Of a stretch of 64,000 nt of DNA, positions 40,209 to 63,517 are shown piece after piece. The DNA comes from Patescibacteria group bacterium (GTDB taxonomy: Bacteria; Patescibacteriota; Patescibacteriia; Magasanikbacterales; GWA2-37-8), in the NCBI GenBank assembly GCA_041661385.1, contig JBAZUP010000001.1:418560-482559 (forward strand), read 5' to 3'. How positions within the stretch are numbered: the stretch's first letter is position 1; each line of letters starts with the position of its first letter. The translations under genes were made by a program, and so were the position numbers. Under the pieces are notes generated by a model. It was not told where the DNA came from. It ran no database searches and saw nothing but the letters and a program-made list of their open reading frames with translations.

Positions 40209-40290
40209 ATTCGAAATAAGTGAGGAAATATTTAAATGTATTAAATTATTTCCGAACTACAAAGAATTGAAGTTTAACTGGTTAATATTT

Positions 40291-49399: not shown

Positions 49400-52333
49400 T
49401 TACTTACCTATTATTTCCTTCAAACCCCAAAAGGTTGAGCCGCCCTCGTGTATTAACGAATTAATTAAAGAATAAACACCCAACTTTGTTGATTTGTTTT
49501 TGTATAAAAAATCAAGTGTTTTAAACCACTCAGTATCAACATGAAATGGTTTTTTGTTTTTTCTAACCCCACCAATTAATAAGTGGAGGTTGGCGATTAC
49601 TAAGGTGTCATCAGGAGATACTTCTGCCAGTTTATTTATCATCATCGTCAGGCCATAATCCCAATCGAACGTACCACCAATTTTTTCTAACGTTAACCTA
49701 ACGGTTCTTGCAAGCCAAGCAATATCAAAAATCTCTTTTTCGTTTTCCAGCCAATAACCGAACTGGTTCAAGCACTTATTCTTGTTATTTTTTAAAACCC
49801 ACTCCCATATTTCATTTAATCGTTTTACGGCGAATGAATTTTTTTTAAGATGTTCTGTTGCTTGTGTATTCCTACCCGTAATAAACATTCTCCCAATAAA
49901 ACTGATAAAATTAGATTGCTTGTCAGTATTGTCTGCCCAAAATAATTTAAACAAGCGGTGATTAAAATCAAACTCCTCATAATGCATAAAGGCTAAAGCC
50001 ATATGCGTCGAGATACTCTCATCCGGGTCCCTAAAATATCTCCTTCCTTCATCCTTAATATTTAAATTGAGACCCTTCTCATAAAGTTCTTGAAATTTGG
50101 TCTCGAAAAACATTTCCTTATAGAGGTTATTAGATAGATAACCTTCCCACGCAGCTAAATACATGATCTCTTTTCCTATGGCCGATGTAAATACGCTAGG
50201 GATAAGAGCTAGTGCCCAATCTCTTTCCTGATAATATATTGCTGGTAAATAATGACCGAACATGAACATTATCGCTCTCGTTTTTTCATTTATTAAAACA
50301 TTTTCGTAGAGATCCTTTACATCCTTAGAAAGATTACTCTTTTTAGATTTACCAAACTTAACATCCAGTATTACAAAATTTATAAAAGCTTGAAATGCCT
50401 TGCCTCGCACTGAATTAATCGCCGTTGTATAAGGATCACCTATTTCATAATCATTATTACCAGGTGATTTAGTTCTAATTTTTGCGGTTTCGATAATTTC
50501 ATCTTTTGGAGCAGGGTCATTTTGCGAAAGCAAAAATTGGATAATGTAAAAAAAAACATCTCTTAATGCAGAAAAATCGCCGACTAATTCAATATTTCCA
50601 TCCTGTAATAGTACTCTCATTAGATTGGCCGTCGCACTATAAACTGCATTCCAATTTGCAAGCCAACCCCTACGTTTTCTCTCGTCCACTTCAAGAATCT
50701 CTTCAACGGGTCTTTTTGAAATTGCAATGGATAAATTCAGTACATTTAATAGACTTCCTCTGACAAACTTTTTTTCATTAATTAAGGAAGTTATTTTCTG
50801 AATAAATGCGTAGGTATAATGGGGATCAATATATTTGTGGTCGAAAAATAACTGAGCACTGTGAAGAAACTCCTCAGTTCTAACTTCAAATTCCTTCTTT
50901 AAACGCTCAGCCACTCCGTCACCATCAATCGGATGAAGAAAATCACCCTGACCATACTTCTCTACCAGATTCGCCGGAGCCCAATCTGATCTTAATAATT
51001 GAATAATTTCAGGAACAGTCTTAGACCAGTCAGTTTCGTTCCCGGGGGCTTTCGGTACAAGGGTACCGGAAACAATTTCACCTATAGTTGGCTGGGGATT
51101 GTAATTTTCATTTAGTTTTCCGAAGACCTCCTGCGATTTTATTTTCTCGTCTTCGGTAAGAAATGGAAATGCGGACGATAAAATATCACTACCGTGAATA
51201 TTTAGATCTTCTTCAGCTTTAAACCTATCAATTACCTTTGAAACATAAAGACGCTGATCAGCCGAGCTCAAGAATGAAAAACATGCTTGTATAAGCCTTT
51301 CGTATTCTGCGCCAAAAATTAAATCGCCTGGATCTTCGTAATCAAAAATTCGAAATAGCTCATTTCTAATATTAACCTTAAATATTTCTGGACATAATGA
51401 GAAAACATATAATTTGAGTCGCCATACAGTCCTGCTATCTGGGAGAATGTTAATATATTTACCATACATACCCATTACATAATCCTTGTTTGAAATATTT
51501 TTTTCAAAAACTTTTTTTAACAAAATTGTAACTGTTGCGGCAAGTTCTCGAACATCGTCCCTAAAAGAAATATGTTTTTGCCGATGGGAAGTTATAGTAA
51601 AAAAATCGACGTCGTAAAAATGGAATGAATCTTCTATAGAAAAAATTTTTCCTTTCTGCTTACTACCCAACAAAACTATCCTTGCAAAAACGTTAATAAC
51701 AACCGCAAGAGCTTTCTCGAGATAAGATGAGTCAATATTATTTATATAGCCAAATATATCAATGTGAGACAGGTCATTAAGATAAAAAGGATTATCGGAA
51801 AATCCCGGACCCTTATTATTTAGGTCTTCCTTTGTCCGAATTGAAAATATCGCATCAATTAAAATCAACAGATTTTCATTATCACCGGCTTTTGAAAGCG
51901 TTTCAAGCATTTTCTGATATTCAATTCCCCACCTGCTATAATTACCCATTAGAGTAACCCACTTTTCACTATAAATTTTCGGAACTAGTCGCGCTAATTG
52001 GTCTGGTGGTAATTTTTCGGCAATCCAAAGAAATTGATCCACAACCTCAGGATTAAAAGTATCTGGTGATATTGGAATTTGTAAAACTAAATCTACTACT
52101 TTTTCTGGTACTTTTTGCGCCATACGAACCAGATAATTAAGTTCTGGCATTCTGTACGAATATACTGATAAATTTTCTGCCTTACTTTTAATAGGATCCA
52201 TGAACCCATTTTCCCACAGCCAATCAAGCCAGCGTTCATCGGCTTGAGAATAAAAATATTGGTGAGAATCAAAATTCAGATCTATAATATCCTTAACCTT
52301 TTTTAGATCTAAATTTGATGGGTTAGAAGTCAT
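49400..52333 (-). CDS. Large hypothetical protein (977 aa), predominantly alpha-helical, no recognised domain
   Basis: Long uninterrupted ORF with no Walker, HExxH, nuclease or other catalytic signature that I can see. Noticeably more AT-rich than the flanking housekeeping genes. Forms a pair with the upstream 187-aa gene, separated by a 5-nt gap. Confidence 0.5.
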   Translation of the reverse strand: MTSNPSNLDLKKVKDIIDLNFDSHQYFYSQADERWLDWLWENGFMDPIKSKAENLSVYSYRMPELNYLVRMAQKVPEKVVDLVLQIPISPDTFNPEVVDQFLWIAEKLPPDQLARLVPKIYSEKWVTLMGNYSRWGIEYQKMLETLSKAGDNENLLILIDAIFSIRTKEDLNNKGPGFSDNPFYLNDLSHIDIFGYINNIDSSYLEKALAVVINVFARIVLLGSKQKGKIFSIEDSFHFYDVDFFTITSHRQKHISFRDDVRELAATVTILLKKVFEKNISNKDYVMGMYGKYINILPDSRTVWRLKLYVFSLCPEIFKVNIRNELFRIFDYEDPGDLIFGAEYERLIQACFSFLSSADQRLYVSKVIDRFKAEEDLNIHGSDILSSAFPFLTEDEKIKSQEVFGKLNENYNPQPTIGEIVSGTLVPKAPGNETDWSKTVPEIIQLLRSDWAPANLVEKYGQGDFLHPIDGDGVAERLKKEFEVRTEEFLHSAQLFFDHKYIDPHYTYAFIQKITSLINEKKFVRGSLLNVLNLSIAISKRPVEEILEVDERKRRGWLANWNAVYSATANLMRVLLQDGNIELVGDFSALRDVFFYIIQFLLSQNDPAPKDEIIETAKIRTKSPGNNDYEIGDPYTTAINSVRGKAFQAFINFVILDVKFGKSKKSNLSKDVKDLYENVLINEKTRAIMFMFGHYLPAIYYQERDWALALIPSVFTSAIGKEIMYLAAWEGYLSNNLYKEMFFETKFQELYEKGLNLNIKDEGRRYFRDPDESISTHMALAFMHYEEFDFNHRLFKLFWADNTDKQSNFISFIGRMFITGRNTQATEHLKKNSFAVKRLNEIWEWVLKNNKNKCLNQFGYWLENEKEIFDIAWLARTVRLTLEKIGGTFDWDYGLTMMINKLAEVSPDDTLVIANLHLLIGGVRKNKKPFHVDTEWFKTLDFLYKNKSTKLGVYSLINSLIHEGGSTFWGLKEIIGK

Positions 52334-52338
52334 ATTTT

Positions 52339-52902
52339 TTAACTATTTGTTGAAGTATCAACTTTAGCAGTTTCGGGCACATTTTTTAAAATGCGATCAA
52401 TTTCTAGATGGATATCAATCTGATGCGTTAAAGCGCTAAGCATTACATTTTCAAAATCTGAAACTAAGTTTTCGAAGTCTTTCTCACTAAATGAAGCATA
52501 ATCAGTGTTGTTTTTTTCCACATTTCCATGATGTGCAAGACCGTTTAATTTCCCATATATAATACCCATATCCCGAATGGTTATGGGAGTCGCGTGAACT
52601 GATCCAAATTTCTTTAGAGCCTCTGCTTTATTTGTTGGGATATCCTCCACATTAGGACTATAAAATGGATACAGAATTTCACGAAGAGAGTTTGCGGCCT
52701 GTGCCATCCAATCCGGATTGGCTTTTAAATTTTTTTGTGACACAAAAAAAGCACCCCTGAGCATATCAGAAGGCTTTGTTTTCAACCTGTATAAATCATG
52801 GAGATCATCTAACCGTCTACACAGGTCTTCTTGCTTGGGACTTAAAGCTACAGGCGATAAATCAAATTCGCCTACAGCTTTCGGCAGCTCTGAATTAACC
52901 AT
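52339..52902 (-). CDS. Hypothetical protein (187 aa) co-oriented with and directly upstream of the 977-aa gene
   Basis: ORF with no recognised motif. Tight operonic spacing. Confidence 0.45.
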   Translation of the reverse strand: MVNSELPKAVGEFDLSPVALSPKQEDLCRRLDDLHDLYRLKTKPSDMLRGAFFVSQKNLKANPDWMAQAANSLREILYPFYSPNVEDIPTNKAEALKKFGSVHATPITIRDMGIIYGKLNGLAHHGNVEKNNTDYASFSEKDFENLVSDFENVMLSALTHQIDIHLEIDRILKNVPETAKVDTSTNS

Positions 52903-53117
52903 AAATTAACATTGTCATGAACCAAGCTTACACCTTTGTCTGCAATAAATAAAGACTTCCGATGTGCTCAGACTACATATGATCTGGCTAATTCAGACCT
53001 ATTAAATTTGCACTAAGACAGTGCACGCTATAGGTTTTGCGAAGCTTAGTTATCTACAGGTCCAAACATATAAAAAACAAACCACTTTTGAGAGGCCTGT
53101 TAAATTAATAATGTTTC

Positions 53118-53285
53118 TTAACCCACGATCTCATTAATTGATTGATCAACAATAATTTGCGGATTCTCTTTTATCAAATCGAATATGAATTGTTTTAAAG
53201 TTTCCTTTTTGAACGTCAACGCAATAATTTTTAGATAATTCGTCTTTCCATCATCTTCATATACAAGTATCAACGATTTATACAT
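53118..53285 (-). CDS. Possible small protein (55 aa) downstream of the 92-aa membrane protein gene
   Basis: Manual ORF MYKSLILVYEDDGKTNYLKIIALTFKKETLKQFIFDLIKENPQIIVDQSINEIVG. No homology known to me. Could be spurious. Confidence 0.2.
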   Translation of the reverse strand: MYKSLILVYEDDGKTNYLKIIALTFKKETLKQFIFDLIKENPQIIVDQSINEIVG

Positions 53286-53293
53286 TCCACCAA

Positions 53294-53572
53294 TTAAACC
53301 TTTTTGTATTTTACTATTTTTTTTATTTCCACGATTCTTCTTATTACAAACAAATGGACATATTTAACTCCATTATTTTCTATAATTAGATATGCCCCTT
53401 TTGTTAAAGCTAGGATATATGCAACTGCAAAACCAAACATCAGCAGAGAAAATCCTAGGGCATCTCTAACTCCATTTGTATTTGTGATTACCGAAATGTT
53501 AATCACCCAGAACAACAAAAGAACAATAATTGTTATTTTTATTTCATTAGTCAGACTCGACTTATATTTCAT
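53294..53572 (-). CDS. Small three-TM membrane protein (immunity-like cassette member)
   Basis: 92 aa, strongly hydrophobic. Located in the array downstream of the RHS toxin genes. Confidence 0.35.
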   Translation of the reverse strand: MKYKSSLTNEIKITIIVLLLFWVINISVITNTNGVRDALGFSLLMFGFAVAYILALTKGAYLIIENNGVKYVHLFVIRRIVEIKKIVKYKKV

Positions 53573-53589
53573 AATGGGTTTTGTACAGC

Positions 53590-54399
53590 TTATTGTTTCT
53601 GTACAGAATTTCTAGCAACTTCAACAAGATATGCTTTATAACCTAAGCTCCAATAAGCCAACAGCCAAATAAATCCTGTTAAACCAAACCAGCCGGCCAC
53701 AAACATTATCACAATTTTATCTAAGGTCAACAGAATGCCAGTTAGAATTATAAATATTTTATTTCCGCGATAAATTACTACTCCTAGAATAAAGTAAATA
53801 ATCAATGAAACCACTAAAAAAAGAGTTATGGGCGTTTTTAACAAAGCAACATAACCTACGGTTATAATAACGGACAAAAATATCACCATAGCACTTTGTT
53901 TTCGATATGATTTCCAAACAGACAAAGAATTGTAATTTTTTATTTGGAACTCCTTTTCTTCTTGTGACATTTTGAATGTCCCGGATTTAATCGGGCTTTG
54001 TTCACTTCCTACCTGGTTAAATCTGCCTTTAAGATGTTTATGGAAGAAAATCCAAACAATCAGAATAAGCATTAACTCGAATATATTAAAAGAAATATAT
54101 CCATTGTGACCAGCAAAAAAGTTCGCCAGGGTGTCAAAAACAATTACCAAAACAGAATAACCAAAAACAATATTTGTCCAAATTAATATCTTTTCAACCA
54201 TTTTTACCAGCTTATAAAGATAAAAACCTGATATAATTAAATCTATTGTATGCACGACCCCAGCAGCAACATTTGTAAGAACATTTCCATAGAAATCTGC
54301 ACCTCTCATCAAACCCGATATACCAAGAAGATCAATAAGAATATTCAAACCCAATAGAACTAAGATAAACCAGATAAATGTAGATTTTTTTTTATTCAT
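53590..54399 (-). CDS. Multi-pass membrane protein (269 aa), candidate immunity protein for the orphan RHS toxin
   Basis: About six TM helices. Immediately downstream of the orphan RHS-CT cassette and the 80-aa protein. Confidence 0.4.
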   Translation of the reverse strand: MNKKKSTFIWFILVLLGLNILIDLLGISGLMRGADFYGNVLTNVAAGVVHTIDLIISGFYLYKLVKMVEKILIWTNIVFGYSVLVIVFDTLANFFAGHNGYISFNIFELMLILIVWIFFHKHLKGRFNQVGSEQSPIKSGTFKMSQEEKEFQIKNYNSLSVWKSYRKQSAMVIFLSVIITVGYVALLKTPITLFLVVSLIIYFILGVVIYRGNKIFIILTGILLTLDKIVIMFVAGWFGLTGFIWLLAYWSLGYKAYLVEVARNSVQKQ

Positions 54400-54403
54400 A
54401 AAA

Positions 54404-54646
54404 TTAGCTTCTTGTTTGTATATAGGTTGCTATTAAAGTAAGCACAATGATGAACACTCCAATAAACATTATTATCCATTTGGTAATCCTGTCTTTATCC
54501 GAGCTGTCCAACCCACCCACGGAACCAGCGCCAAATGGGCCGAACCACCACGCTACTTTTTTAGCTACCTTAATTACACTTTCAAGCTGCGATGCGAAAA
54601 TGATTAAAACACCTAGTGCAAGGACTGAAAGATTTATAAGCTTCAT
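54404..54646 (-). CDS. Small two-TM membrane protein (80 aa), candidate immunity protein
   Basis: Overlaps the stop of the orphan RHS-CT ORF by 4 nt (translational coupling). Hydrophobic. Confidence 0.4.
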   Translation of the reverse strand: MKLINLSVLALGVLIIFASQLESVIKVAKKVAWWFGPFGAGSVGGLDSSDKDRITKWIIMFIGVFIIVLTLIATYIQTRS

Positions 54647-55683
54647 AATTTGGTCTTTTTTGGACTTACAATTTTTGACTCAACATGATCAATTATGCTT
54701 TTTCCAGTGGTAAGCTGACTAGCCTTATCCAGAGTATTATAAATTATCTTACCAGTTTTTTCAGTGAGATATTTAAGAGTTGATTGACCCACTCCAGCAG
54801 ATTTAGCGTTCCGATATATTTTATATGCAGGCGATACTTTGGAAACATACGTGGGAACGTCTTTTGCAGAGAAGAACAATAGATCCCCTCCTGTTGCAGC
54901 AGAATCAAACAACGTATTATCTTTCAAAATTGAATTCGAGAACTCGCGATATGGTCCCTGCGTGTTTGAACGAGATGGTTCCCGATCCATGAAGGAACCA
55001 ACAATGTTTTCAGCTGCATTTGATGAATCGGCAAATGCACTATCTAAGTTGCCTAAAGATCCTGCTGTTAGCAAGGCGGCTGCCTGAGGCTGTCCTACGG
55101 CTAATGCTCCCCCAGCGAAGATTGCTTGTGGTACGGCTGCAAGTCCGTCTAAGACGGTTTTTCCAACTTGAAGCGCTCCCACACCAAATGTTTTTGCAGC
55201 GAACTCACCCGCTTCATCAACGTAATTCAAGGGGTTGTTTAGAGCATAGGAATAGCTATTCATATGCTGGGGGTTAGAGAGATAACTTTGTAGATCCATT
55301 TTTGTATACCTTCTAATCTGATCAGAGTCTCCAACTGCCAGAAATGCTGGATCCTGGGATAGGAGCTGACATCTCGAACCATCCTGATATCGAGCTCCCA
55401 TATAGTTCAAACCGGTATCCATGTCGTACTCATGTCCAGTAAATTTCTTTGGTTCGTTTAACCCGTTTGTCTGTTCATCAATCCGTATACCACCATATGG
55501 ATAGTAATCTGTCAACTCCGCAATGGTCCCGGTCACTGTGGTCATAATATTTGACCCACCTAAGTGGTCAGTATGAACGTTATATACACTAGAACTAGCA
55601 TTAGACCCTTTTACCGTAGCGACAAGCGTATCACCAAGATAAAATTGCTTCATGGTTGTTGTGCCACTGACCGTGTATGCCAT
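54643..55683 (-). CDS. Orphan RHS repeat-associated core domain plus alternative C-terminal toxin domain (displaced rhs-CT cassette)
   Basis: HTDHLGGSNIMTTVTG...DYYPYGGIRIDE...NYMGARYQDGSRCQLLSQDP...NSYSYALNNPLNYVDEAGEF is the canonical RHS core (xxHxDHLGS...YYPFG...ARYYDP...R..S.DP...N.Y.Y..NNP...D). It is followed by a ~190-aa unrelated C-terminal region with a Gly/Ala-rich stretch (FGVGALQVGK...AIFAGGALAVG). Confidence 0.7.
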   Translation of the reverse strand: MAYTVSGTTTMKQFYLGDTLVATVKGSNASSSVYNVHTDHLGGSNIMTTVTGTIAELTDYYPYGGIRIDEQTNGLNEPKKFTGHEYDMDTGLNYMGARYQDGSRCQLLSQDPAFLAVGDSDQIRRYTKMDLQSYLSNPQHMNSYSYALNNPLNYVDEAGEFAAKTFGVGALQVGKTVLDGLAAVPQAIFAGGALAVGQPQAAALLTAGSLGNLDSAFADSSNAAENIVGSFMDREPSRSNTQGPYREFSNSILKDNTLFDSAATGGDLLFFSAKDVPTYVSKVSPAYKIYRNAKSAGVGQSTLKYLTEKTGKIIYNTLDKASQLTTGKSIIDHVESKIVSPKKTKL

Positions 55684-56045: not shown

Positions 56046-59000
56046 TTATTTCTTAGTTGCTTTTATAATAGATTTGATTATCGACACGGCATTCTTAATA
56101 TCCGTAACAATATTTCTGTTATAATTTGGGTTATTTAATTGTGCTTGTACCCTCTGCCCATAAGATGTGACGCCTTTGGCTGGGCTATAGTTATATCTAC
56201 TCGCAGTGAGTGCCGTACTATCGGACCGACCTTGCTCTTTTGCAATATTACGAACTCCGGCATCGATGTTTTTTGCTGGATCGCGAGCTAGCTCTGCTTT
56301 GTTATAACCATATTCTTTTCCGATCTTGCCACTTACCTGCATTACCCCAACACCGCCACTACCAACATTTGGAAATAACTGCTCACGACCAAGTACTTCA
56401 TCCGGCTGTAAGTGCGATTGCTCTTCGTACATAATCGCATTAGTAAGATTGGAACTAACTCCATATTTAGTACTTGCATCATTAACAGTTGTTTGATTTT
56501 GCTGAATTGCTTCCAACGCGCGCTCATGACCACCAAAAACTTCTCCAGTTTTCATCATAAACCCACTAACACCAGAATACCCGCTCCAGTCGTAAAATCC
56601 ATACCACCAAAATCTACCATCTGGATCTTTATTTACAACTGGATTATTACCGGCATATGCATACGCATTCATAGCTTGCGGATTTAATAGTGCATCTTTA
56701 CCATCCGAAGTTAGTCCGATTTCCCCAAATACTGGATCTTGTGACACAAACTGCCCGCGTGCTGAATCATAATATCTCGCATTAAGATATGACAAACTAT
56801 TATCATCTGTAAACTGACCGATAAATTTGCGCTTATCGCTAGCAGTACCGGCATTTATTCGCTCGGCACCGTATGGATAATAATCGACCGCCTGAATAAT
56901 ATTTGCACCTGAATCCGTAATAATATTTGTGCTTCCAAGTTGGTCGGAATGAACAAAATGTGTTGAAGATACACTACCGTTTTTCTCAACTGTTGCCAAG
57001 AGATCACTACCAACGAATATATATTTTGTGGATGTGTTTCCTACTATACTGTAGTATCTATTGGAATATGTTGTGGTTGTTCCACCCGTTCCAAGTTTAC
57101 GATACATCACCCTGTTACCGTCTTGGTCATACAGGTAGGTTGAAGTAACCCTGTTTGCAGTGGATGTTGCGAGTTGATTGCGATAGTCCCAAGTATACAG
57201 TATGCTCGCCGAAGACGATGTCATGTTGCCATTCTTGTCATAGCTAAATGTTGTTGTGCCGACAGCTGTTACCGCATCCGGATTGGCATAACTAGAACCC
57301 TGGTAACCCAAATAGCTATAATCCCCAACGTCACTGCGATTAGTGATATTTCCTAGTGCATCATAAGCATAGGTTTGAGTGTAATCACCACTTTTTACAG
57401 CATCGGTGACTTTAGCCGAGAGCAAACGGTTCAAATTATCATAGCTGTAGATATTAAGCTTGCTGGTACTGGTTGAAGAATTATCTAAAATTTGAGTAAT
57501 GTTACCAACCTTGTCGTAAGCGTAACTCAAGTTCTGTATAGCATTGCCTGGTGCATAGAAATAATCACGGCCATTGGTCCAAGCCCCCTCATTACCAAGG
57601 TTATCCCAGAATTTGATACGCCAGAAGTATTTCATGCCATTATTTGGAATTGCTGGGCCAGCATAGGCAATATTTGGTGTTCTTGCACCGACAGCAATGC
57701 TAGGAGAAAGTGTTTGTGAGCCAGAATCCCAGAGTGGCGCGGAGAAATCGGCCCCGCTTTGAGTAACTTGTATTCTATAATTAGTCGCTGAGGTGGAAGT
57801 GTTAGCTGATTCATACAGCGCGCTGAATTGTGGGGTAGAAGTAATCTTGGTCGCCTGCTTTGGCCAGAAATGAACATTATCAAACCAGATTGTATTCGTT
57901 GACGAACCTAAATAGAACATCAAACGAACATTTGAATCACCCTGTGATGGCGTAATTTCAAATTGGTAAGTCTTCCATGCTGGATTTAACAGGAATGTGT
58001 TATACGAAAGATCTGAATATGCATCATGGTTCTGGTTAATTGCGACCGCTTCAGTGGTACTAACGGTTCCTTTGGCATCAAAGGATAAAATATAGGTCGT
58101 TGAAGTCGCGACTGCAGTATTTTGCGCAAGTTGCACCTGCCAGGCTTGCCCACCATAATTAACTATTGTTTTATTTGAGCAGCCGCCATCGGTTGTACTG
58201 GTAGTACAATCAACTGAATTTGTTGACTGGCCTGTGCCACCGTTTGACCAAGCATACCAATTGTTCATGCTCGTTTCAAAACTTTGGTTCTTGATCATAT
58301 TCAAGCCGTCTGGAATAACTTCCACGTCATCAAACCAAATGGTACTGGTGCTAGCACCTAGATAATAGAATACCCGTGCCAGTTCATCTGTACCATTACT
58401 GGTGAATGAATATGTATATTGCTTCCAATTTGGTGTAATACTGACACCAGTTGCAAGGCCATAATCCGACCAGGGGCTATGGTCTTGATTAATACCAAAG
58501 GTAATCGTTGTAGTAGCGTTGGCTTTGGCCCTAAACTTCACAGTGTAATTCATTCCATTATCTACGCGTAAATCTTGCCAGAGCTGTGAATCCCAAACAT
58601 TGCCGCCAGTCGGTACAGTGACCTGTTGTGAACAATTACCAGTATATGAAGCAGTGCAATCAAGTGTGGCAGTGCCTGTTGCAGACCAATACTTCCAAAC
58701 GCTAAGCAATGCTCCCTCAAAACTATCATCATAAATTATGCTTTGAGTAATAGCCAGACCGTTTACAGTCATATTCCGTGGAGCAGTCGGACCACCAGCT
58801 ACACCCGAAGAAGAAGTATTGATTAGATAATATGCACCCGGCATTAGTCCCTCACCATAGTAACCAACGCTGCTGGTTGGCAACGACGTATTTTTGTTAA
58901 TGAGACGATAGAGCCGATTCGCATCATATGTAAATGTAGTTGTGACTCCAGATGGATATGTGATTTGTGCAGTCTGACCGAGGGGTGAATAAATAATATT

Positions 59001-62000
59001 GCTTACCAGTGTCTTGAAACTACCGTCACTGTTTTCCTTGTAATTCACTGCCTGCGGTCGGTTCGCTGAATTATACACATACTGCACTTGTGAGTTATCC
59101 GGGTAGGTGATGTTGGTGTTATTTCCTAGTCGATCATAACTGTATTGAGTTACATAATTAACATTATTTATCTTCTTCGTTTCTTGCTTCAAATGTCCAT
59201 TACCGTCATAAACATTATTAACAATCGCGCCAGTTGAAGTGACCGAACAGAATTTACCAACACCATAAGTGCACCTATCATAACCATAAGTAACTTCAGT
59301 ACCGCTCTTGCCGGTATAATCTTCTGTTAATACTCGATTTAACTTGTCGTAAGTATAATTAACGGTTTGCTTATTTGGATCAACTTTTTGAGTTAGGTTG
59401 CCATTATTATCATAAACAAAAGTTGAGGTACCAAAAGTAGTATCACCTGAAGAGTGTAGATCTTCCACACCAACACGTCTACCAAGACCATCATAAGCAA
59501 AACTACGGACATTACTCAATGAATCTGTGACGCTGATCAAATTTCCAAGTCCGTTGTATGTGTAATTTGTGGTATAGGTGCTACCGTTATTTATTTCCTC
59601 AACTTTAACTAAATTGTCGTAGGCATCTTTATATAGATTCTTACTATTTCCATTAGCATCAGTTGCGGTCAGTTTCCAACGGTCATAAGAGTTGGTGGAA
59701 GTTCCAACCGAATCAATTGTTACAACAAGACGTAGCAGAGGATCATATAAATATGTTTTATATAATGACTGAGTGGTTGTCGCAGTTGTTGAAGCTGAAC
59801 CAGATGAGAAATACGGTAGAGATTCTTTTTCAATCGGACCACGCGATCCATATACGAAATCGGTGACTGAGTAATTACCCGAATCATCAACTCTTTGTCG
59901 TTTCTGAATTGTTCGGTCTAATCCATCGGTATACGCATAACTATCGGTAGTGGTTGCGTTATTTAAATAATCAGTTTGCTTAATTTGCCAACCAATTGAT
60001 TGTGGCGTGTACAAATATTCTGTTGATGTAACCAAGGTTGATGTGGTAGTGAGATCTGGTTTTAAAATCGCAACTACCCTATCTAAACCGTCAAATACTG
60101 TCTGATACTTAAGGTTATTTTGGTCGATTACCTGTTTAGGTTTACCATTTGAATAGTCATAAGACTTTATAACCTTGTAAGACAACGCATCGGTTGTGGT
60201 TGTTGGGTAAAGGTTATAGCTGTCATAGTTGTAGGTCGTTGTATTGCCCAAAGCATCGATATCACTGGTTACAAGGCCATAAGAATTGTATATTTTTTGA
60301 TTATTTATATAAGTCGTGCTGGTTTGCCATGATTCCTGCTTGGTCATATTTCCTTTTAAAACTACGCCGATGGTCGAGGTGTCATAATAATATCTGTCCT
60401 GTTTTACTTTAAGAGTGTTATAGTCGGAAACTAAAACTGATGACGGTAAACCAAGAATGTATGAGCTGGTATTAATTGCAAAGGTGTAATCAGTCGTGTA
60501 CGAATCTGTTCCCGTATCACTAAATGTGCCATCGTCATTCCCACTTACCTCGCCCCAATCTATTTGTTGCAACAAATTTCCGGTGCTGGTCGTGTTATAT
60601 GTGAAACTTTGAGCTTTATCTTTATGGGAAGCATTACCATCATATGTATAATCGACACTTTGCGTTTCAAAAACAAATCGCGAACTAGTACTTAAAACAG
60701 CTTCATCCCATTTATTAATATTTTTTGTAAAAAGACTTCCGTTTATATCGTATGTTTCGACACGATATGGCTTGTTGATTTTATAATAGCTATCATTATA
60801 TTCCCCATGCGATGAGTCGCTTGTATCACCCTGGTGATAATAGGTGCTTACATAATTCCCAAAACTGTCCGTCTTGGTAACTTTGTTAAATCCAGCAAAT
60901 TTACGATCTAAAGTGTTACCATAATATAATTTTCCACCTTCATATTTGAACGAGGATGAGTTAGTTGTACCCAAACCATCAAGGTTCCGAATTTGTAAAA
61001 CCGTATTTAAAACCATTGGCAAATTTGGGTTAGCTAAGTTTGAGCCAGTTCTATAAAAAGTAGTGGCCTGATAATCGACCAGGGTTATCCCGCCTGAGCT
61101 ATGTTTTACAGAAATCAATAAATCAGATGCTCTTTTGGTATTATTTAAATAAACATAATTTTGAATATAATCCTGTCTATACGCATTCCAACCATTTTTT
61201 AAAATATCTGGCAATCCATCTCCATTAATATCCATTATTCTTACACCTAGATCGTAAGTAGAGTTTGCAAAATTTTGCGGAGAACTCCACGAATTATCTG
61301 ATTGAAAACCAGTTCCAGTGTTTATATAACCACCGTTTTCCGGATTATCACTAGTATTATAATTAATTAATCCCCGGACTATAATGTCGTCAAGTCCATC
61401 ACCATTAATATCAGAAATTCTCGCACCGTAATCGACAGATTGATCCCATGGACCCATTGGATTATATATTTTAACCGGCTGACTAATAGAACTATCGCAC
61501 ACCCAACCGTGGCCATTGTTTAAACAAATACTTTTTTGATAACCTCCAGATGTATTGGTGCCTTGAATAATATCAACCAAACCATCACCATTTACATCGC
61601 CAAAAACGGTACCGTTGTCAATTACTGGAAGTGACCACTGTGGATCTGGAGAAACAAACAAACTACCATTATTTATGGCTACATAAGCAACCCAATGAAT
61701 AGAATCCGAACGGTATATATCAAGCAGACCATCCCCGTTTAAATCTACAAATCTAGTACCCAGGTCCCAACTATTATTTACCATATCGACAACCGGAAAC
61801 GAACCAGGAGGAGAAAAATTACTATCTATTGGTCCAAAATTTGTACCAGTGTTTGAGAAAGCCCATGAAGTTGGGGTTTGCTGAGCAATCCAAGACCCTA
61901 TGATATCGCTTAGTCCGTCACCATTATAATCAGCCACTCTTGATCCCATGTCGAAATTTGAAACACCAGAAGCATCATAAAATGCTCTAAACGAACCAAA

Positions 62001-63398
62001 AGTAGTGCTAGTAGTCCAAGTCCCATCACCATTATTAAAATAGACTAAACTTGTTGATGCTGCACCACCTGAAGATTGCCAAGAAGAAAGCACATCCTGA
62101 AGACCATCTCCGTTCGCATCTCCGAATTGATTACATACATTAATTCCTGCCTTAGTTAACCAGTTTCCATCTTGCGTCCAACCTGGAGTCGAAGTTGAAT
62201 AACTAAAAGTGGTAGTAGGTATCCTGGTTACAACCCCTAGATCATCCTGACCCTGCTCAGAAATCGTTGATAATAATGACCTATAGCCATTAGCCCCCGT
62301 TATATATTGCAAAAAATATTTTCTCAACCAACTCCCACTAATATTTACATCAATTTCATAAATTCTATAATTTGAAACTACCTTAAACCCCGTTTTATAT
62401 TGTTGCAGAGCATCACTGCGACTTTCTCTTAAGAAATTGACGGTGAATATCCCCTGCGTTGTGCTATTGACGGTATAGGTAATAGCCGAGGGATAAATTT
62501 GACCGCCATCTTTAAAATATTCGTATTTAATAAAATTATCATTCGTATCTCGTACTTCCTGTAGCATCCATTTATAAATATGACTTGTACTACTGGCGTC
62601 AAACTGCTGTGTTGACGTGTCCACTCCAAACTTATATATTGTTCCTTTTTTATCAGTTACAACCCAAGTACTTGAAGAATATGTGTATTTTAGAAAATCG
62701 CCATTTTCAACTTTTGCTTGATAAGTGGTGGTATTTATCTGAACTAGTTCATCACTTAAACTTGAAAAAAATGTCGAGGTTGCCGAATATAACCGGTCTA
62801 CCCCATATCGATTAATTAATTGAATATACGGAATATTTACACTCCAACCATAGCCAAAAACACTGGAATTGTCCGTGTCTTGACTGTTATAACGAAGTTT
62901 TATATCCGGTTGGAAACCGTTTCTTCCTGGCGGTATAATTATTGGATATTCATTAATAAAGGCACCCGAGCTTAAATCTACCCCTGGTAAATGAAATGTA
63001 TTTACCGGCTCAAGAAAACTCGCTGACACTGCCGAACCAGAAGTAAGCGTATTTTGTGTTATTGATTTTTTACTTACAGTGTTATCCTTAGCCGGCAAAC
63101 TATCTAAAGTTGATGGTTCGGTCGCCACATTATCAGGCACAATTGTCGTGGAATCAACGGGAGCTGTTGGTGTAATTTCCACAACTGGATCAGGATTAAT
63201 AATAGTAGTTTCAATTGGCTGGGGAGTTAGATCAGGCAAAGACACCAACGTATCTACACTTACTGTGAGTGAATCAGGTGTCGTTATTACAGGCTCATCA
63301 ACAGCCAAGACATTGGGTGCTGATAAAATAAAAAACGAAGTTAGCGCAACTGCGAATAACTTCGTCGTAATAAAACGATATCGTTTGTTTCCCTCCAT
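56046..63398 (-). CDS. Giant secreted RHS/YD-repeat polymorphic toxin, Tc-toxin (TcB-TcC)/teneurin-like: signal peptide, SpvB domain, FG-GAP-type propeller repeats, tandem CBM-like modules, YD repeats, RHS core, C-terminal lytic-transglycosylase-like toxin domain
   Basis: The track ORF is 56046..63506 with a TTG start inside a terminator hairpin, so the in-frame ATG near 63398 (MEGNKRYRF... signal peptide ...SAPNVLA) is the more likely start. SpvB motif IIIPPGRNGFQPDIKLRYNSQDTDNSSVFGYGWSVNIPYI. Six or more D-x-N-G-D-G-L-x-D repeats. YD repeats (YTYNGLGN, YAYDGLGR, YDNNGN, YSYDRLGN, YAYDKVGN, YLYDQDGN and others). RHS core ...VHSDQLGSTNIITD...YYPYGAE...ARYYDSARGQFVSQDP...AYAGNNPVVNKDPDGRF. C-terminal ~190 aa carry EEQS ... 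GVMQV ... RYNYSP, resembling SLT motifs I-III. Confidence 0.85.
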   Translation of the reverse strand: MEGNKRYRFITTKLFAVALTSFFILSAPNVLAVDEPVITTPDSLTVSVDTLVSLPDLTPQPIETTIINPDPVVEITPTAPVDSTTIVPDNVATEPSTLDSLPAKDNTVSKKSITQNTLTSGSAVSASFLEPVNTFHLPGVDLSSGAFINEYPIIIPPGRNGFQPDIKLRYNSQDTDNSSVFGYGWSVNIPYIQLINRYGVDRLYSATSTFFSSLSDELVQINTTTYQAKVENGDFLKYTYSSSTWVVTDKKGTIYKFGVDTSTQQFDASSTSHIYKWMLQEVRDTNDNFIKYEYFKDGGQIYPSAITYTVNSTTQGIFTVNFLRESRSDALQQYKTGFKVVSNYRIYEIDVNISGSWLRKYFLQYITGANGYRSLLSTISEQGQDDLGVVTRIPTTTFSYSTSTPGWTQDGNWLTKAGINVCNQFGDANGDGLQDVLSSWQSSGGAASTSLVYFNNGDGTWTTSTTFGSFRAFYDASGVSNFDMGSRVADYNGDGLSDIIGSWIAQQTPTSWAFSNTGTNFGPIDSNFSPPGSFPVVDMVNNSWDLGTRFVDLNGDGLLDIYRSDSIHWVAYVAINNGSLFVSPDPQWSLPVIDNGTVFGDVNGDGLVDIIQGTNTSGGYQKSICLNNGHGWVCDSSISQPVKIYNPMGPWDQSVDYGARISDINGDGLDDIIVRGLINYNTSDNPENGGYINTGTGFQSDNSWSSPQNFANSTYDLGVRIMDINGDGLPDILKNGWNAYRQDYIQNYVYLNNTKRASDLLISVKHSSGGITLVDYQATTFYRTGSNLANPNLPMVLNTVLQIRNLDGLGTTNSSSFKYEGGKLYYGNTLDRKFAGFNKVTKTDSFGNYVSTYYHQGDTSDSSHGEYNDSYYKINKPYRVETYDINGSLFTKNINKWDEAVLSTSSRFVFETQSVDYTYDGNASHKDKAQSFTYNTTSTGNLLQQIDWGEVSGNDDGTFSDTGTDSYTTDYTFAINTSSYILGLPSSVLVSDYNTLKVKQDRYYYDTSTIGVVLKGNMTKQESWQTSTTYINNQKIYNSYGLVTSDIDALGNTTTYNYDSYNLYPTTTTDALSYKVIKSYDYSNGKPKQVIDQNNLKYQTVFDGLDRVVAILKPDLTTTSTLVTSTEYLYTPQSIGWQIKQTDYLNNATTTDSYAYTDGLDRTIQKRQRVDDSGNYSVTDFVYGSRGPIEKESLPYFSSGSASTTATTTQSLYKTYLYDPLLRLVVTIDSVGTSTNSYDRWKLTATDANGNSKNLYKDAYDNLVKVEEINNGSTYTTNYTYNGLGNLISVTDSLSNVRSFAYDGLGRRVGVEDLHSSGDTTFGTSTFVYDNNGNLTQKVDPNKQTVNYTYDKLNRVLTEDYTGKSGTEVTYGYDRCTYGVGKFCSVTSTGAIVNNVYDGNGHLKQETKKINNVNYVTQYSYDRLGNNTNITYPDNSQVQYVYNSANRPQAVNYKENSDGSFKTLVSNIIYSPLGQTAQITYPSGVTTTFTYDANRLYRLINKNTSLPTSSVGYYGEGLMPGAYYLINTSSSGVAGGPTAPRNMTVNGLAITQSIIYDDSFEGALLSVWKYWSATGTATLDCTASYTGNCSQQVTVPTGGNVWDSQLWQDLRVDNGMNYTVKFRAKANATTTITFGINQDHSPWSDYGLATGVSITPNWKQYTYSFTSNGTDELARVFYYLGASTSTIWFDDVEVIPDGLNMIKNQSFETSMNNWYAWSNGGTGQSTNSVDCTTSTTDGGCSNKTIVNYGGQAWQVQLAQNTAVATSTTYILSFDAKGTVSTTEAVAINQNHDAYSDLSYNTFLLNPAWKTYQFEITPSQGDSNVRLMFYLGSSTNTIWFDNVHFWPKQATKITSTPQFSALYESANTSTSATNYRIQVTQSGADFSAPLWDSGSQTLSPSIAVGARTPNIAYAGPAIPNNGMKYFWRIKFWDNLGNEGAWTNGRDYFYAPGNAIQNLSYAYDKVGNITQILDNSSTSTSKLNIYSYDNLNRLLSAKVTDAVKSGDYTQTYAYDALGNITNRSDVGDYSYLGYQGSSYANPDAVTAVGTTTFSYDKNGNMTSSSASILYTWDYRNQLATSTANRVTSTYLYDQDGNRVMYRKLGTGGTTTTYSNRYYSIVGNTSTKYIFVGSDLLATVEKNGSVSSTHFVHSDQLGSTNIITDSGANIIQAVDYYPYGAERINAGTASDKRKFIGQFTDDNSLSYLNARYYDSARGQFVSQDPVFGEIGLTSDGKDALLNPQAMNAYAYAGNNPVVNKDPDGRFWWYGFYDWSGYSGVSGFMMKTGEVFGGHERALEAIQQNQTTVNDASTKYGVSSNLTNAIMYEEQSHLQPDEVLGREQLFPNVGSGGVGVMQVSGKIGKEYGYNKAELARDPAKNIDAGVRNIAKEQGRSDSTALTASRYNYSPAKGVTSYGQRVQAQLNNPNYNRNIVTDIKNAVSIIKSIIKATKK

Positions 63399-63492
63399 AT
63401 ATTTAATAAATTTTCTTGTTCTAGATGAACAAATAACTGACCATAATATATACCCTTTTAAAACAACCTTGCAACTTAGGCTGTGGATAACA

Positions 63493-63517
63493 AAAAACCG
63501 CCCCAAAAGGCGGTTTT
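63493..63517 (-). terminator. Terminator of the upstream 145-aa gene
   Basis: Minus-strand hairpin aaccgcc-tttt-ggggcggtt followed by a U-run. Confidence 0.55.

Follow-up and report, generated by a model that had tools for sequence, protein, structure and literature searches.

We found that a 64-kb stretch (hereafter the window) of the 778,751-bp contig JBAZUP010000001.1, from the Patescibacteria metagenome-assembled genome GCA_041661385.1, encodes a 2450-aa polymorphic toxin whose SpvB domain, propeller and RHS/YD repeats are, judged by profile similarity, homologous to the BC cocoon of Tc toxins. The joint explanation that we consider best, with a probability of roughly 55%, is that of a Sec-exported BC cocoon of the TcdB/TcaC class, with a glycan-binding cassette on its exterior, a cargo that attacks peptidoglycan, an adjacent immunity gene and an orphan cassette that permits switching of the cargo.

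Architecture and integrity of the toxin gene

The gene is read from an uninterrupted minus-strand ORF of 7.4 kb that runs from a TTG at 63506 to the stop codon at 56046; the ATG at 63398 is its likely start, and the predicted product has a size of ~266 kDa (Table 1). Its parts are arranged in the order signal peptide, SpvB/TcB domain, six-blade FG-GAP propeller, RHS/YD shell, 443-aa insert, shell again, Rhs core and cargo. The initial annotation had assigned the feature to 57900..63398, which is too short, since it ends at about residue 1833, the end of the second carbohydrate-binding module (CBM), and thereby omits the last 617 residues, namely, the Ig module, 220 aa of further shell, the core and the cargo. 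Upstream of the start, the terminator hairpin of the preceding gene is followed by a promoter-like site, thus the toxin gene appears to begin its own transcription unit, with a promoter assigned by position only, since promoter-like sites are overall no commoner in the region than expected by chance. The preceding gene extends past the window end, and the window contains ~0.6 kb upstream of the toxin.

Since the gene comes from a metagenome-assembled genome, and repeats abound in RHS genes, the ORF might be an assembly chimera, a possibility already raised in the initial annotation, or a decaying pseudogene fusing unrelated pieces. However, the ORF is intact, and the protein is identical to the Patescibacteria MAG protein MFA6105431.1 / MFA6490492.1, found on two contigs and in three archives (NCBI, JGI and ENA). 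Moreover, a CBM-CBM-Ig insert occupies this site in eight independent homologs, and P0002 (60% identity) together with six others agrees in architecture and in the residue at which the insert begins. We therefore rejected an artefact, the chance of which we regard as negligible.

Table 1. Features of the toxin locus, with positions in the window
Feature	Residues	Positions	Strand	Basis or remark
Intrinsic terminator of preceding gene, strong hairpin		63517..63494	-	Upstream of toxin start
Promoter-like TTGCAA-18-TATATT		63474..63445	-	Between terminator and toxin start
Whole toxin gene, fused TcB-like/TcC-like RHS polymorphic toxin	1-2450	56046..63398	-	ORF list and translation
Putative signal peptide (MEGNKRYRF..FILSAPNVLA/VD)	1-32	63303..63398	-	By eye from translation
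Acidic Pro/Thr/Val-rich low-complexity linker	33-139	62982..63302	-	Translation; pI 4.05
SpvB/TcB N-terminal domain	~140-425	62124..62981	-	Pfam SpvB, family profile
Six-blade FG-GAP (integrin-like) beta-propeller	~426-790	61029..62123	-	Motifs, Pfam, profile
RHS/YD-repeat shell, part one	~791-1507	58878..61028	-	Pfam RHS_repeat, TIGR01643
Inserted cassette, 443 aa	1508-1950	57549..58877	-	Homolog gap, Pfam, AF2 model
Cassette: disordered linker	1508-1555
Cassette: CBM_4_9 a	1556-1697
Cassette: CBM_4_9 b	1698-1845
Cassette: Ig/FN3-like module	1846-1950
RHS/YD shell, part two	1951-2172	56883..57548	-	Pfam, homolog alignment, AF2 model
Rhs-associated core with aspartyl autoprotease motif	2173-2262	56613..56882	-	TIGR03696, 54.4 bits
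Predicted cargo, SLT/GH23 lysozyme-like lytic transglycosylase domain (188 aa, 20.7 kDa, pI 9.2)	2263-2450	56049..56612	-	Pfam, profile, AF2/Foldseek
Toxin stop codon		56046-56048	-
Candidate immunity gene, 115 aa, three predicted TM helices		55697..56044	-	Begins 2 nt past toxin stop
Orphan Rhs C-terminal cassette, 346 aa		54643..55683	-	Rhs core (aa 60-159), TIGR03696 56.8 bits, then unrelated ~185-aa C-terminal domain
Two-TM ORF, 80 aa, overlapping orphan stop; candidate orphan immunity gene		54404..54646	-	Position

Relationship to the Tc-toxin BC cocoon

The TcB-like nature of the N-terminal half, proposed from the sequence at the outset, was borne out by profile comparison. The SpvB domain is recognised by Pfam (E 1e-14, 54.9 bits against a cut-off of 22) and by a family profile compared with SpvB 6p0x (E 1.7e-7), while the propeller harbors six DxNGDGxxD motifs in the translation and matches FG-GAP_3 (E 7.6e-16). 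Positions 334-815 of the family profile align with TcdB1 335-796 (E 3e-29) and also match YenB (E 3e-25), collinear over the propeller, which is the counterpart of the TcB 'gate' and, with 32-46% identity to homologs, the least conserved structural part. The acidic linker preceding these domains is weakly conserved (9-32% identity). The putative leader agrees with the Sec-type leader of the TcdB/TcaC class.

The RHS part turned out to be TcC-like, as had also been suggested. Pfam RHS_repeat is matched in eight stretches (E 2.6e-29), a sub-threshold DUF6443 match lies near the B/C junction (aa 1138-1214), and the family profile matches TcdB2-TccC3 with an E-value of 1e-58. In an AF2 model of residues 1100-2270, built on a 33-sequence alignment and with an overall pLDDT of 78.6, the shell segment 1100-1507 consists of beta-hairpins throughout (pLDDT 82-94). 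Foldseek matches of this model include Rhs, Tc (TcB-TcC) and teneurin shells, SGS1 and tandem CBM22; among these matches, the TcdB2-TccC3 entries have the top query TM-scores (0.43-0.47, e.g. 4o9x), and YenC has a target TM-score of 0.56. The comparison with YenB/YenC and teneurin shells proposed in the initial annotation yielded matches to all three.

The RHS shell ends in an Rhs core, placed by NCBIfam at aa 2173-2261, which by its sequence has the two catalytic aspartates and a PxxxxDxxG cleavage motif as in Tc BC cocoons; D2221, D2258 and G2261 are invariant in the 33 aligned sequences. Autocleavage is predicted after R2262, that is, between NNPVVNKDPDGR and the following F (DPDGR/F motif). 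Natural tcB-tcC fusions are known, and the cleavage signature is an Arg at P-1 and an Asp at P-3 (Song et al. 2021, PMC7861908). The BC cocoons with which we compared the protein, TcdB2-TccC3 (4O9X, 6H6G), YenB/YenC2 (4IGL) and the Burkholderia pseudomallei fusion ABA52082.1, share with it the SpvB domain, the propeller gate, the RHS shell, the aspartyl-protease core and this signature.

TcdB/TcaC is a catalogued class of polymorphic toxins with the architecture signal peptide-SpvB-propeller-RHS-toxin (Zhang et al. 2012, Biol Direct, PMC3482391, Table 1). The window gene agrees with this class, as set out there, in its signal peptide, SpvB domain, integrin-like beta-propeller and RHS repeats, in its variable C-terminal toxin, and in being linked to an orphan cassette and to a candidate immunity gene; it is an expected member of the class and a natural TcB-TcC fusion rather than a new type of machine. 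In what the survey sets out on this class, Patescibacteria are not among the lineages listed, and neither a lectin-type cassette inserted in the shell nor an SLT cargo is described.

Cargo and downstream cassettes

The initial annotation overlooked the cargo as well as the immunity-like and orphan cassettes behind it. The C-terminal 188 residues are, according to sequence profiles and a structural model, an SLT/GH23 lysozyme-like domain. By single-sequence statistics this assignment is modest: Pfam SLT matches aa 2305-2407 with an E-value of 1.2e-5 (25.3 bits against a cut-off of 21.3), and all Foldseek E-values are at least 0.018. A profile of the cargo, however, matches MltC (E 3e-6), with the Glu and the AYN motif correctly placed, and also g-type lysozyme (E 0.013), where the catalytic Glu is aligned too; 16 homologs retain the motifs YEEQSH, GVGVMQV and YN. 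The AF2 model of the cargo (pLDDT 81) has Tse3, MltE, MltC, EtgA, g-lysozyme, a lysozyme-like chitinase domain, Slt and MltF among its listed Foldseek matches, the sole other fold listed being the T7 DNA ejectosome tunnel at rank 49. The cargo thus resembles MltC, MltE, Slt70 and the Pseudomonas aeruginosa T6SS muramidase effector Tse3, with Tse3, MltE and MltC as best fold matches. It differs from Tse3 and the family-1 transglycosylases in its proposed delivery as an encapsulated Rhs cargo instead of by T6SS, in having EEQS rather than ES, and in an identity below 26%. It has no hydrophobic leader helix, such as is found in 40 of the 119 family cargos.

Relatives retain the shell and exchange the cargo, as judged from their sequences: cargo identity to homologs is 16-21%, versus 32-68% in the SpvB domain, propeller and RHS shell, and ten homolog cargos represent ten different toxin or enzyme families. 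Cargos in the family include barnase-type RNase, Tox-GHH, Tox-REase-7, Ntox44, Ntox21, M15, VanY, NlpC/P60 and LysM.

The candidate immunity protein encoded directly after the toxin has a conserved loop, WYxxGxNHGPWR, which is predicted to face outward. In locus L031 a homolog of it (33% identity, E 8e-20) directly follows a BC toxin with the same SLT cargo (53% identity). In locus L081 we considered the 161-aa ORF directly after an SLT orphan as a further homolog and rejected it for lack of homology; a weaker homolog lies nearby. The orphan cassette of the window is 40% identical to the toxin up to the cleavage motif and unrelated beyond it, and orphan cassettes are present in 23 of 80 related loci. 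The SLT cargo, the immunity-like gene and the orphan cassettes together therefore indicate an interbacterial polymorphic toxin.

A putative carbohydrate-binding cassette inserted in the shell

Domain annotation, called for in the initial annotation, assigned SpvB, FG-GAP_3, RHS_repeat and CBM_4_9 rather than unrelated folds, and the proposal of two CBM4/9/22-type modules followed by an FN3-like segment was upheld. Pfam CBM_4_9 is matched in two stretches (E 6.5e-26, 91.8 bits against a cut-off of 25.9) and Ig_Rha78A_N at aa 1853-1941 (E 7e-7); the first CBM matches the CBM4 of Thermotoga maritima laminarinase 16A (1gui, E 2.9e-13), and the AF2 model matches the tandem CBM22 structure 4xup (Foldseek E 5e-13). 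The two CBMs share 37% identity, each contains one Cys pair, and the WFDDV and WFDNV endings noted earlier are both present in the translation. In the AF2 model, the linker has a pLDDT of 25-44, and the modules have values of 47-91 per ten-residue block, mostly 70-90.

Of 119 homologs, 43 have nothing at the cassette site, residue ~1507 joining ~1951, and the other 76 have 200-1128 aa there, 45 of them with detectable Ig-like modules. Precomputed whole-protein Pfam lists contain PF13385 and PF10102, which we take to be LamG-type and DUF2341 domains, respectively, in some homologs. A second insertion hot spot of the family, at about aa 2065-2173, is empty in the window toxin. We infer that the insertion point coincides exactly with a hairpin turn of the TcC-like half and that the cassette is attached there by a flexible linker of ~48 residues. 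It is most likely displayed on the shell exterior, because its 48 kDa together with the 21-kDa cargo should exceed one lumen, because its linker is disordered, and because there is a precedent in mosquito SGS1 (PDB 8FJP), an Rhs/YD cocoon with beta-propellers that carries an exterior CBM and lectin-CRD formed from shell-inserted segments (PMC9935623). SGS1, which is among the fold matches, shares with the window toxin a single-chain Rhs shell decorated with CBM/lectin modules, but it is eukaryotic, encloses transmembrane helices instead of an enzyme, and has a CBM like CBM61 rather than CBM4/9/22. Since the site is empty in many homologs and variously filled in the others, the cassette is an accessory module, probably an adhesive one. 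Its identity to P0002 is 74-75%, compared with 46-68% for SpvB, propeller and shell and about 20% for the cargo, which indicates that the insert is under constraint.

What such a cassette binds can be read in more than one way. CPR bacteria are episymbionts in contact with their hosts, and the cassette might bind wall or S-layer glycans of the producer itself, so that the cocoon stays on the surface and acts on contact only, like WapA. That the cassette is conserved and not diversifying between the window protein and P0002 agrees with this, as does the lack of a sortase motif or TM segment in the translation that could serve as another anchor; in addition, Sec-exported Rhs/WapA toxins of monoderms are wall-associated (Streptococcus suis WapA, PMC12704120). 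WapA of Bacillus subtilis and S. suis likewise combines Sec-dependent, TcA- and T6SS-independent export with an RHS shell, a polymorphic toxin with immunity gene and an extra surface-binding region, but differs in its N-terminal wall-binding repeats, the involvement of sortase, the lack of SpvB domain and propeller, and a binding region that lies at a terminus and not within the shell (PMC12704120). On the other hand, the 43 insert-free homologs have no alternative anchor at the cassette site, and since insert content differs widely by lineage, variable targets fit better than a conserved wall of the producer. The ligands for which CBM4/9/22 modules are known are beta-glucan and xylan, which also speaks against binding to the producer; to our knowledge, these families have no peptidoglycan ligands. 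We thus consider retention on the producer rather unlikely.

Alternatively, the cassette might be directed at beta-glucan or xylan of plants, algae or fungi, or at biofilm matrix, which would fix the toxin to particles or a eukaryotic surface. Indeed, the best solved relatives are a laminarinase CBM4 and a xylanase CBM22, and the insecticidal Vip3 and Cry toxins, with their CBM-like domains, are among the Foldseek matches. However, the predicted cargo is a lytic enzyme of the peptidoglycan type, the linked immunity-like gene points to a bacterial target, and the cargos of the family are typical antibacterial polymorphic toxins, making a non-bacterial target improbable. We therefore favor a cassette that acts as an adhesin for other bacteria.

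The gene neighbourhood and the question of TcA

More than 500 relatives of the toxin were found, mostly in Patescibacteria, and we surveyed the neighbours of 80 related loci, the best related locus in the genome-contig scan being 45% identical. No TcA-sized or TcA-family ORF is present in the 64-kb window, which covers ~56 kb downstream and ~0.6 kb upstream of the toxin; the rest of the window contains housekeeping genes, with no ORF above 977 aa in the ~56 kb downstream. Neither a conserved nor a TcA-like neighbour was found across the 80 loci: the commonest neighbour cluster occurs in only 14 of them, in variable positions, and none of ten large neighbour ORFs scanned is TcA-like. Two of these ten have no match; the large neighbours include RpoC, an ABC ATPase, a UvrA-like ATPase, a ClpB-type AAA+ protein, a Wzy-type O-antigen ligase, a polysaccharide deacetylase with Ig and CBM_4_9 domains, a CotH/beta-helix protein and an LCAT-type lipase. 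An ORF of ~1170-1220 aa with no Pfam match lies upstream in four loci (five-locus cluster).

These observations bear on whether the protein is a canonical Tc BC component whose propeller docks on a TcA pentamer encoded in another part of the genome, its CBMs merely adding avidity. It has kept a TcB-type propeller, collinear with the gate region of TcdB1 and YenB, ~715 kb of the contig lies outside the window, and there are known cases of tcC genes that lie apart from tcA and tcB (PMC7861908). However, besides lacking a TcA-like neighbour, the protein bears a putative Sec signal peptide, unlike the classical Tc subunits, and by profile offsets has about 300 fewer residues between propeller and TcC-like part than Tc BCs. 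The cargos of the family are 125-230 aa, against 201-400 aa in Tc BCs, the window cargo and the candidate immunity gene are of an antibacterial type, in contrast to an anti-eukaryotic enzyme, and the immunity and orphan cassettes point to interbacterial use; together with its 443-aa CBM/Ig insert, this sets the window toxin apart from the Tc BCs. We therefore regard dependence on a distant TcA as very improbable.

The initial annotation had suggested a self-contained toxin in which lectin-like modules may provide target binding in place of TcA. The absence of a TcA-like gene, both in the window and in the 80 loci, agrees with the first part of this claim. Nevertheless, we rejected the second, because the 43 of 119 close homologs that have no insert equally have no TcA; the modules are accordingly not the source of TcA-independence, and the cassette is an optional accessory, not a substitute delivery device.

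Proposed mechanism and implications

Under the Sec-exported cocoon that we favor, the shell would close after export around its own cleaved, basic 21-kDa cargo, and the two CBM4/9/22-type beta-sandwiches and the Ig-like module, as probable glycan-binding adhesion modules, would enrich the cocoon at the envelope of the bacterium under attack, either host or competitor. The cargo is predicted to attack peptidoglycan, and since this substrate lies outside the cytoplasmic membrane, the window toxin would need no TcA-type membrane translocator. The producer would probably be protected by the adjacent three-TM protein with its predicted outward loop, and the toxin could acquire a different cargo by recombining with the orphan cassette downstream. 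Relatives that carry nucleases must cross a membrane, thus the family has an unexplained translocation step.

In the literature we found only passing mentions of Rhs or Tc toxins in Patescibacteria/CPR. The locus suggests that these bacteria carry Tc-type cocoons with Sec-type export and no TcA injector nearby, loaded with predicted wall-degrading enzymes, and that the RHS shell has defined plug-in sites for binding modules. If the modules set target specificity, the family would offer a tractable system in which to study how an RHS cocoon releases its cargo without TcA, as well as a natural scaffold whose 'address' and 'payload' can be exchanged separately.

Patescibacteria are ultra-small bacteria that live attached to other microbes. 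One may tentatively go further and suppose, with less confidence than in the mechanism above, that a large family of compact, Sec-secreted, TcA-independent BC cocoons is the main contact weapon of Patescibacteria and a few other lineages, in which the cassettes set host or prey range and the cargo is swapped. By analogy with phage receptor-binding modules, the two fixed hot spots in the TcC half would take interchangeable lectin, Ig or LamG cassettes, and orphan cassettes would swap the cargo end independently. If this is true, the tandem CBMs would direct a cargo that cleaves peptidoglycan against the host bacterium's wall, linking Tc-type encapsulation to the episymbiotic lifestyle.

Finally, an exhaustive search of representative proteins with the CBM pair returned 2588 matches. 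The seven closest non-Rhs relatives that we scanned are multi-CBM proteins, none with a Pfam glycoside-hydrolase domain and two with a UbiA membrane domain.

Gene structure and domain organization

The toxin gene lies in an uninterrupted open reading frame (ORF) on the minus strand (63506..56046), which holds the whole region of the initial annotation. Past the end of the preceding gene (63528) lies a ten-pair terminator hairpin (63517..63494), and downstream of the hairpin a promoter-like sequence, TTGCAA-18-TATATT (63474..63445). Since this terminator and the promoter-like site stand just upstream, the ATG at 63398, also the end coordinate of the initial annotation, is the likely start, giving a product of 2450 aa. 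The identical public protein (MFA6105431.1 and MFA6490492.1; longest contig carrying it, 778,751 bp) is recorded as 'carbohydrate binding domain-containing protein [Patescibacteria group bacterium]' by NCBI and as 'RHS repeat-associated protein' by JGI.

We determined the domain order using Pfam, NCBIfam and PDB sequence searches. The first CBM_4_9 module matches the CBM4 of T. maritima laminarinase 16A (E 2.9e-13); the two modules are 37% identical to each other, and each has one Cys pair. The initial annotation had described a TcB-like part fused to an RHS shell with two inserted sugar-binding modules, and was correct on these domains, including the WFDDV and WFDNV endings; its coordinates end at about aa 1833, leaving out the last quarter of the gene together with the payload. 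The protein fits the polymorphic-toxin class definition given by Zhang et al. (2012, PMC3482391).

Features of the toxin protein and of its surroundings in the window
Feature	Protein position (aa)	Window position	Strand	Support
Signal peptide	1-32
Acidic Pro/Thr linker	33-139
SpvB/TcB N-domain	~140-425
Six FG-GAP blades (propeller)	~426-790	61029..62123
RHS/YD repeats	after propeller, before CBM modules
Two CBM_4_9 modules				E 6.5e-26
Ig/FN3-like module	after CBMs			Ig_Rha78A_N, E 7e-7
Further RHS repeats	between Ig/FN3-like module and Rhs core
Second insertion hot spot	~2065-2173	~56880..57206
Rhs core				TIGR03696, 54.4 bits
SLT domain	C-terminal			25.3 bits (cut-off 21.3)
Orphan Rhs C-terminal cassette + 80-aa ORF		54404..55683	minus
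Low-GC stretch		49400..54399	minus	GC 0.34-0.35 (~0.40 elsewhere)
Tandem phosphoglycerate mutase genes		38622..41853	minus

Homology to the B and C subunits of Tc toxins

Run against PDB sequences, a family profile built from 33 members matched the TcdB2-TccC3 fusion (E 1e-58), TcdB1 (E 3e-29; profile 334-815 to TcdB1 335-796, the propeller region), YenB (E 3e-25), TccC2 and YenC2 (E 1e-27 to 1e-22) and SpvB (E 1.7e-7). Natural tcB-tcC fusions are on record (Song et al. 2021, PMC7861908). In an AlphaFold2 model of aa 1100-2270 (mean pLDDT 78.6) the shell consists entirely of beta-hairpins; its structural matches include T6SS Rhs shells, teneurins, SGS1 and YenC (target TM 0.56), and the highest query TM-scores belong to TcdB2-TccC3 entries (0.43-0.47, e.g. 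4o9x). According to the profile alignment offsets, the propeller is ~300 residues closer to the TcC-like part than in TcdB2-TccC3, which makes for a more compact cocoon of TcB- and TcC-like parts (BC). We regard the protein as a polymorphic toxin of the BC type, compact and decorated, with no TcA, the separate translocator of Tc toxins, encoded nearby.

In the Rhs core, D2221 and D2258 are invariant, and the cleavage-site sequence, NNPVVNKDPDGR with F following the cleavage point, agrees with the PxxxxDxxG motif and with the pairing of a P-1 Arg with a P-3 Asp described by Song et al. (2021, PMC7861908). The predicted cleavage would free a 188-aa cargo (20.7 kDa, pI 9.2) within an acidic shell (pI 4.7). 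Among CBM-bearing homologs, no structural part is less conserved than the TcB-like propeller (32-46% identity versus 42-68% for SpvB/RHS), which would be unexpected were the propeller merely a passive lid.

Modular insertion hot spots

The most interesting aspect of the protein is its modular insertion hot spots. We anchored the 119 best homologs on the shell segments flanking the insert (aa 1508-1950). In 43 of them, the positions equivalent to ~1507 and ~1951 abut with 0-2 residues between them (5 in one), while the remaining 76 carry an insert of 200-1128 aa at exactly the same site; one further homolog has 34 residues there. An Ig-like module occurs in 45 of the 76 inserts, and the CBM-CBM-Ig cassette in eight of the 120 proteins listed (the query and seven homologs). 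The precomputed Pfam lists of other homologs contain PF13385 and PF10102, which we take to be a LamG-type domain and DUF2341, respectively, with no place given within those proteins. In the model, shell strands (aa 1498-1505 and 1953-1961) flank the insert, which starts with a segment of ~48 residues with a pLDDT of 25-44; this places the insert at a hairpin turn, held by a flexible tether. Identity to P0002, the closest homolog, is 74-75% over the cassette, 46-68% over the SpvB domain, propeller and RHS shell, and about 20% over the cargo; thus, the cassette has been constrained and the cargo replaced.

Mosquito SGS1, whose structure has been solved, has a CBM and a lectin-CRD inserted in the sequence of its Rhs/YD shell and displayed outside (PMC9935623). 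Because of this precedent and the flexible tether, and because a 48-kDa cassette plus a 21-kDa cargo are implausible in one lumen, we infer that the cassette is displayed outside the shell. An exhaustive search with the CBM pair returned 2588 related CBM regions. The closest non-Rhs relatives scanned (seven proteins) are multi-CBM, two of them also with an N-terminal UbiA membrane domain, and Pfam found no glycoside-hydrolase domain in these seven, a pattern that fits adhesion better than the targeting of an enzyme. The strongest non-Rhs matches, P0136 (2994 aa) and P0139 (1978 aa), have an odd architecture, in which an N-terminal UbiA prenyltransferase membrane domain precedes 12-19 tandem CBM_4_9-like modules.

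The second hot spot, which immediately precedes the Rhs core within the TcC-like shell, is empty in the query and holds an extra 150-700 aa in 27 of the 119 homologs (P0023, P0068, P0086, P0101 and others). Some homologs are also extended at the N-terminus, by 400-700 aa. Downstream of P0005, a homolog in a Falkowbacteria MAG, an orphan fragment (L002:17798-21154) equivalent to query aa 1429-1980 spans the shell strands and the complete CBM-CBM-Ig cassette, and is followed by a core-containing piece. As this fragment carries the whole cassette, recombination may swap not only the cargo but also the binding cassette.

Family distribution and search for TcA

We found at least 513 loci of the family in species-representative genomes, mostly of Patescibacteria (Saccharibacteria, Parcubacteria lineages, Doudnabacteria, Gracilibacteria and Microgenomates), but also of Acidobacteriota, Methylocystis, Niastella and Methanoperedens. 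In the literature on CPR bacteria we found only a passing remark on TccC-annotated proteins (PMC6851277).

The window extends ~56 kb past the 3' end of the gene, and apart from the toxin none of its ORFs is longer than 977 aa. In the flanks (up to 10 kb) of 80 related loci we found no conserved neighbour; the largest shared family occurs at 14 loci, and shared families sit at variable positions. Ten of the largest neighbouring ORFs were scanned, and none belongs to the TcA families: they encode RpoC, ABC and UvrA-like ATPases, a ClpB-type AAA+ protein, a Wzy-type O-antigen ligase, a polysaccharide deacetylase with Ig and CBM_4_9 domains, a CotH/beta-helix protein, an LCAT-type lipase and two proteins without a match. 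Therefore, TcA-independence belongs to the family, insert-less members included, and is not conferred by the CBMs. The initial annotation had proposed that the lectin-like modules may provide target binding in place of a separate TcA; its observation is confirmed, but this interpretation is partly supported, since insert-less family members are equally TcA-less.

At four of the 80 loci (L017, L038, L042 and L064; a 5-locus cluster), an ORF of ~1160-1220 aa lies just upstream of the BC gene on the same strand; the one member scanned (L064) has no Pfam match, and the ORF is absent from the visible part of the window. In a Saccharibacteria locus (L065:2242-6207), the BC toxin gene is immediately preceded by one encoding a CBM_4_9, six Big_7 Ig domains and a polysaccharide deacetylase, a further case of CBM_4_9 on a probable envelope-modifying protein.

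The SLT cargo and its putative immunity protein

We identified 15 homologs of the cargo domain, four of which are named RHS repeat-associated protein by JGI. Where the N-terminus is present and reaches beyond the cargo, an Rhs core directly precedes the domain; the remaining homologs are short fragments. The motifs YEEQSH, GGVGVMQVS, KNIDAG and YN are kept. The cargo profile matches MltC (E 3e-6), g-type lysozyme (E 0.013) and Slt70 (E 0.2), with the catalytic Glu and the AYN motif lining up. The AF2 model of the cargo is helical (pLDDT 81), and its structural matches have modest E-values (0.018 upwards). Among the matches listed, the top ones are the lysozyme-like Tse3 (a T6SS muramidase effector), MltE and MltC, with EtgA, g-lysozymes, a lysozyme-like chitinase domain, Slt and MltF lower; the sole other entry is the T7 DNA ejectosome tunnel (rank 49). 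From the conserved motifs, profile and fold matches, we conclude that the cargo is a predicted peptidoglycan glycan-strand-cleaving enzyme.

The cargos of ten homologs, each taken from beyond the DPxG motif, represent ten different families: barnase-type RNase, Tox-GHH, Tox-REase-7, Ntox44, Ntox21, DUF4258, Peptidase_M15_3, VanY/M15_4, NlpC/P60 and a LysM-containing domain. In 40 of the 119 family cargos (e.g. P0064, P0102 and P0112), a Gly/Ala/Val-rich hydrophobic helix (19-residue Kyte-Doolittle mean >= 1.6) lies within ~80 residues past the cleavage motif, and might be a self-translocation leader for cytoplasm-acting cargos without TcA; it is absent from the SLT cargo of the query.

A 115-aa ORF with three predicted TM helices begins two nt past the toxin stop codon. 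An insert-less BC protein at locus L031 has the same SLT cargo (53% identity), and the equivalent place after its gene is taken by an ORF homologous to the 115-aa one (33% identity, E 8e-20) and sharing its loop motif WYxxGxNHGPWR. This recurrence of both partners supports a putative toxin/immunity pair. At L081, the locus of a third SLT cassette, the next ORF downstream is unrelated to the 115-aa ORF, with a weaker homolog nearby, so the immunity assignment stays inferential.

The orphan cassette of the window (346 aa; Rhs core 56.8 bits) shares 40% identity with the main gene as far as the cleavage motif; beyond it the sequence is unrelated and starts with a Gly/Ala-rich hydrophobic stretch. 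With the overlapping 80-aa two-TM ORF that follows, it looks like a spare toxin/immunity pair. Of the 80 related loci, 23 have such orphan cassettes, with a maximum of four at one locus.

Proposed mechanism

Judging from its leader, the protein would be exported by Sec, a route established for Rhs/WapA toxins in Gram-positives (PMC12704120). A BC-type cocoon would then fold, as the homology indicates, autoproteolysis would occur after R2262 in the recognized motif, and the basic lysozyme-like cargo would become encapsulated. The CBM-CBM-Ig cassette, whose fold is shown, would sit outside and serve as a glycan-binding adhesion unit. Released at the target wall, the cargo would cut peptidoglycan without membrane translocation, consistent with its lack of the hydrophobic leader found in 40 of the 119 family cargos, and the 115-aa membrane protein would give self-protection, in line with the co-occurrence.

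Genomic surroundings

The low-GC stretch just downstream of the toxin locus contains ORFs of 977 aa, 187 aa and 269 aa (multi-TM), none of them matching a Pfam or NCBIfam family. Elsewhere the window carries housekeeping genes, with Val-, Arg- and Asp/Lys/Asn-class tRNA synthetases, enolase, two phosphoglycerate mutases and ScpA. The two mutases are tandem cofactor-independent paralogs (528 and 520 aa) adjoining enolase.
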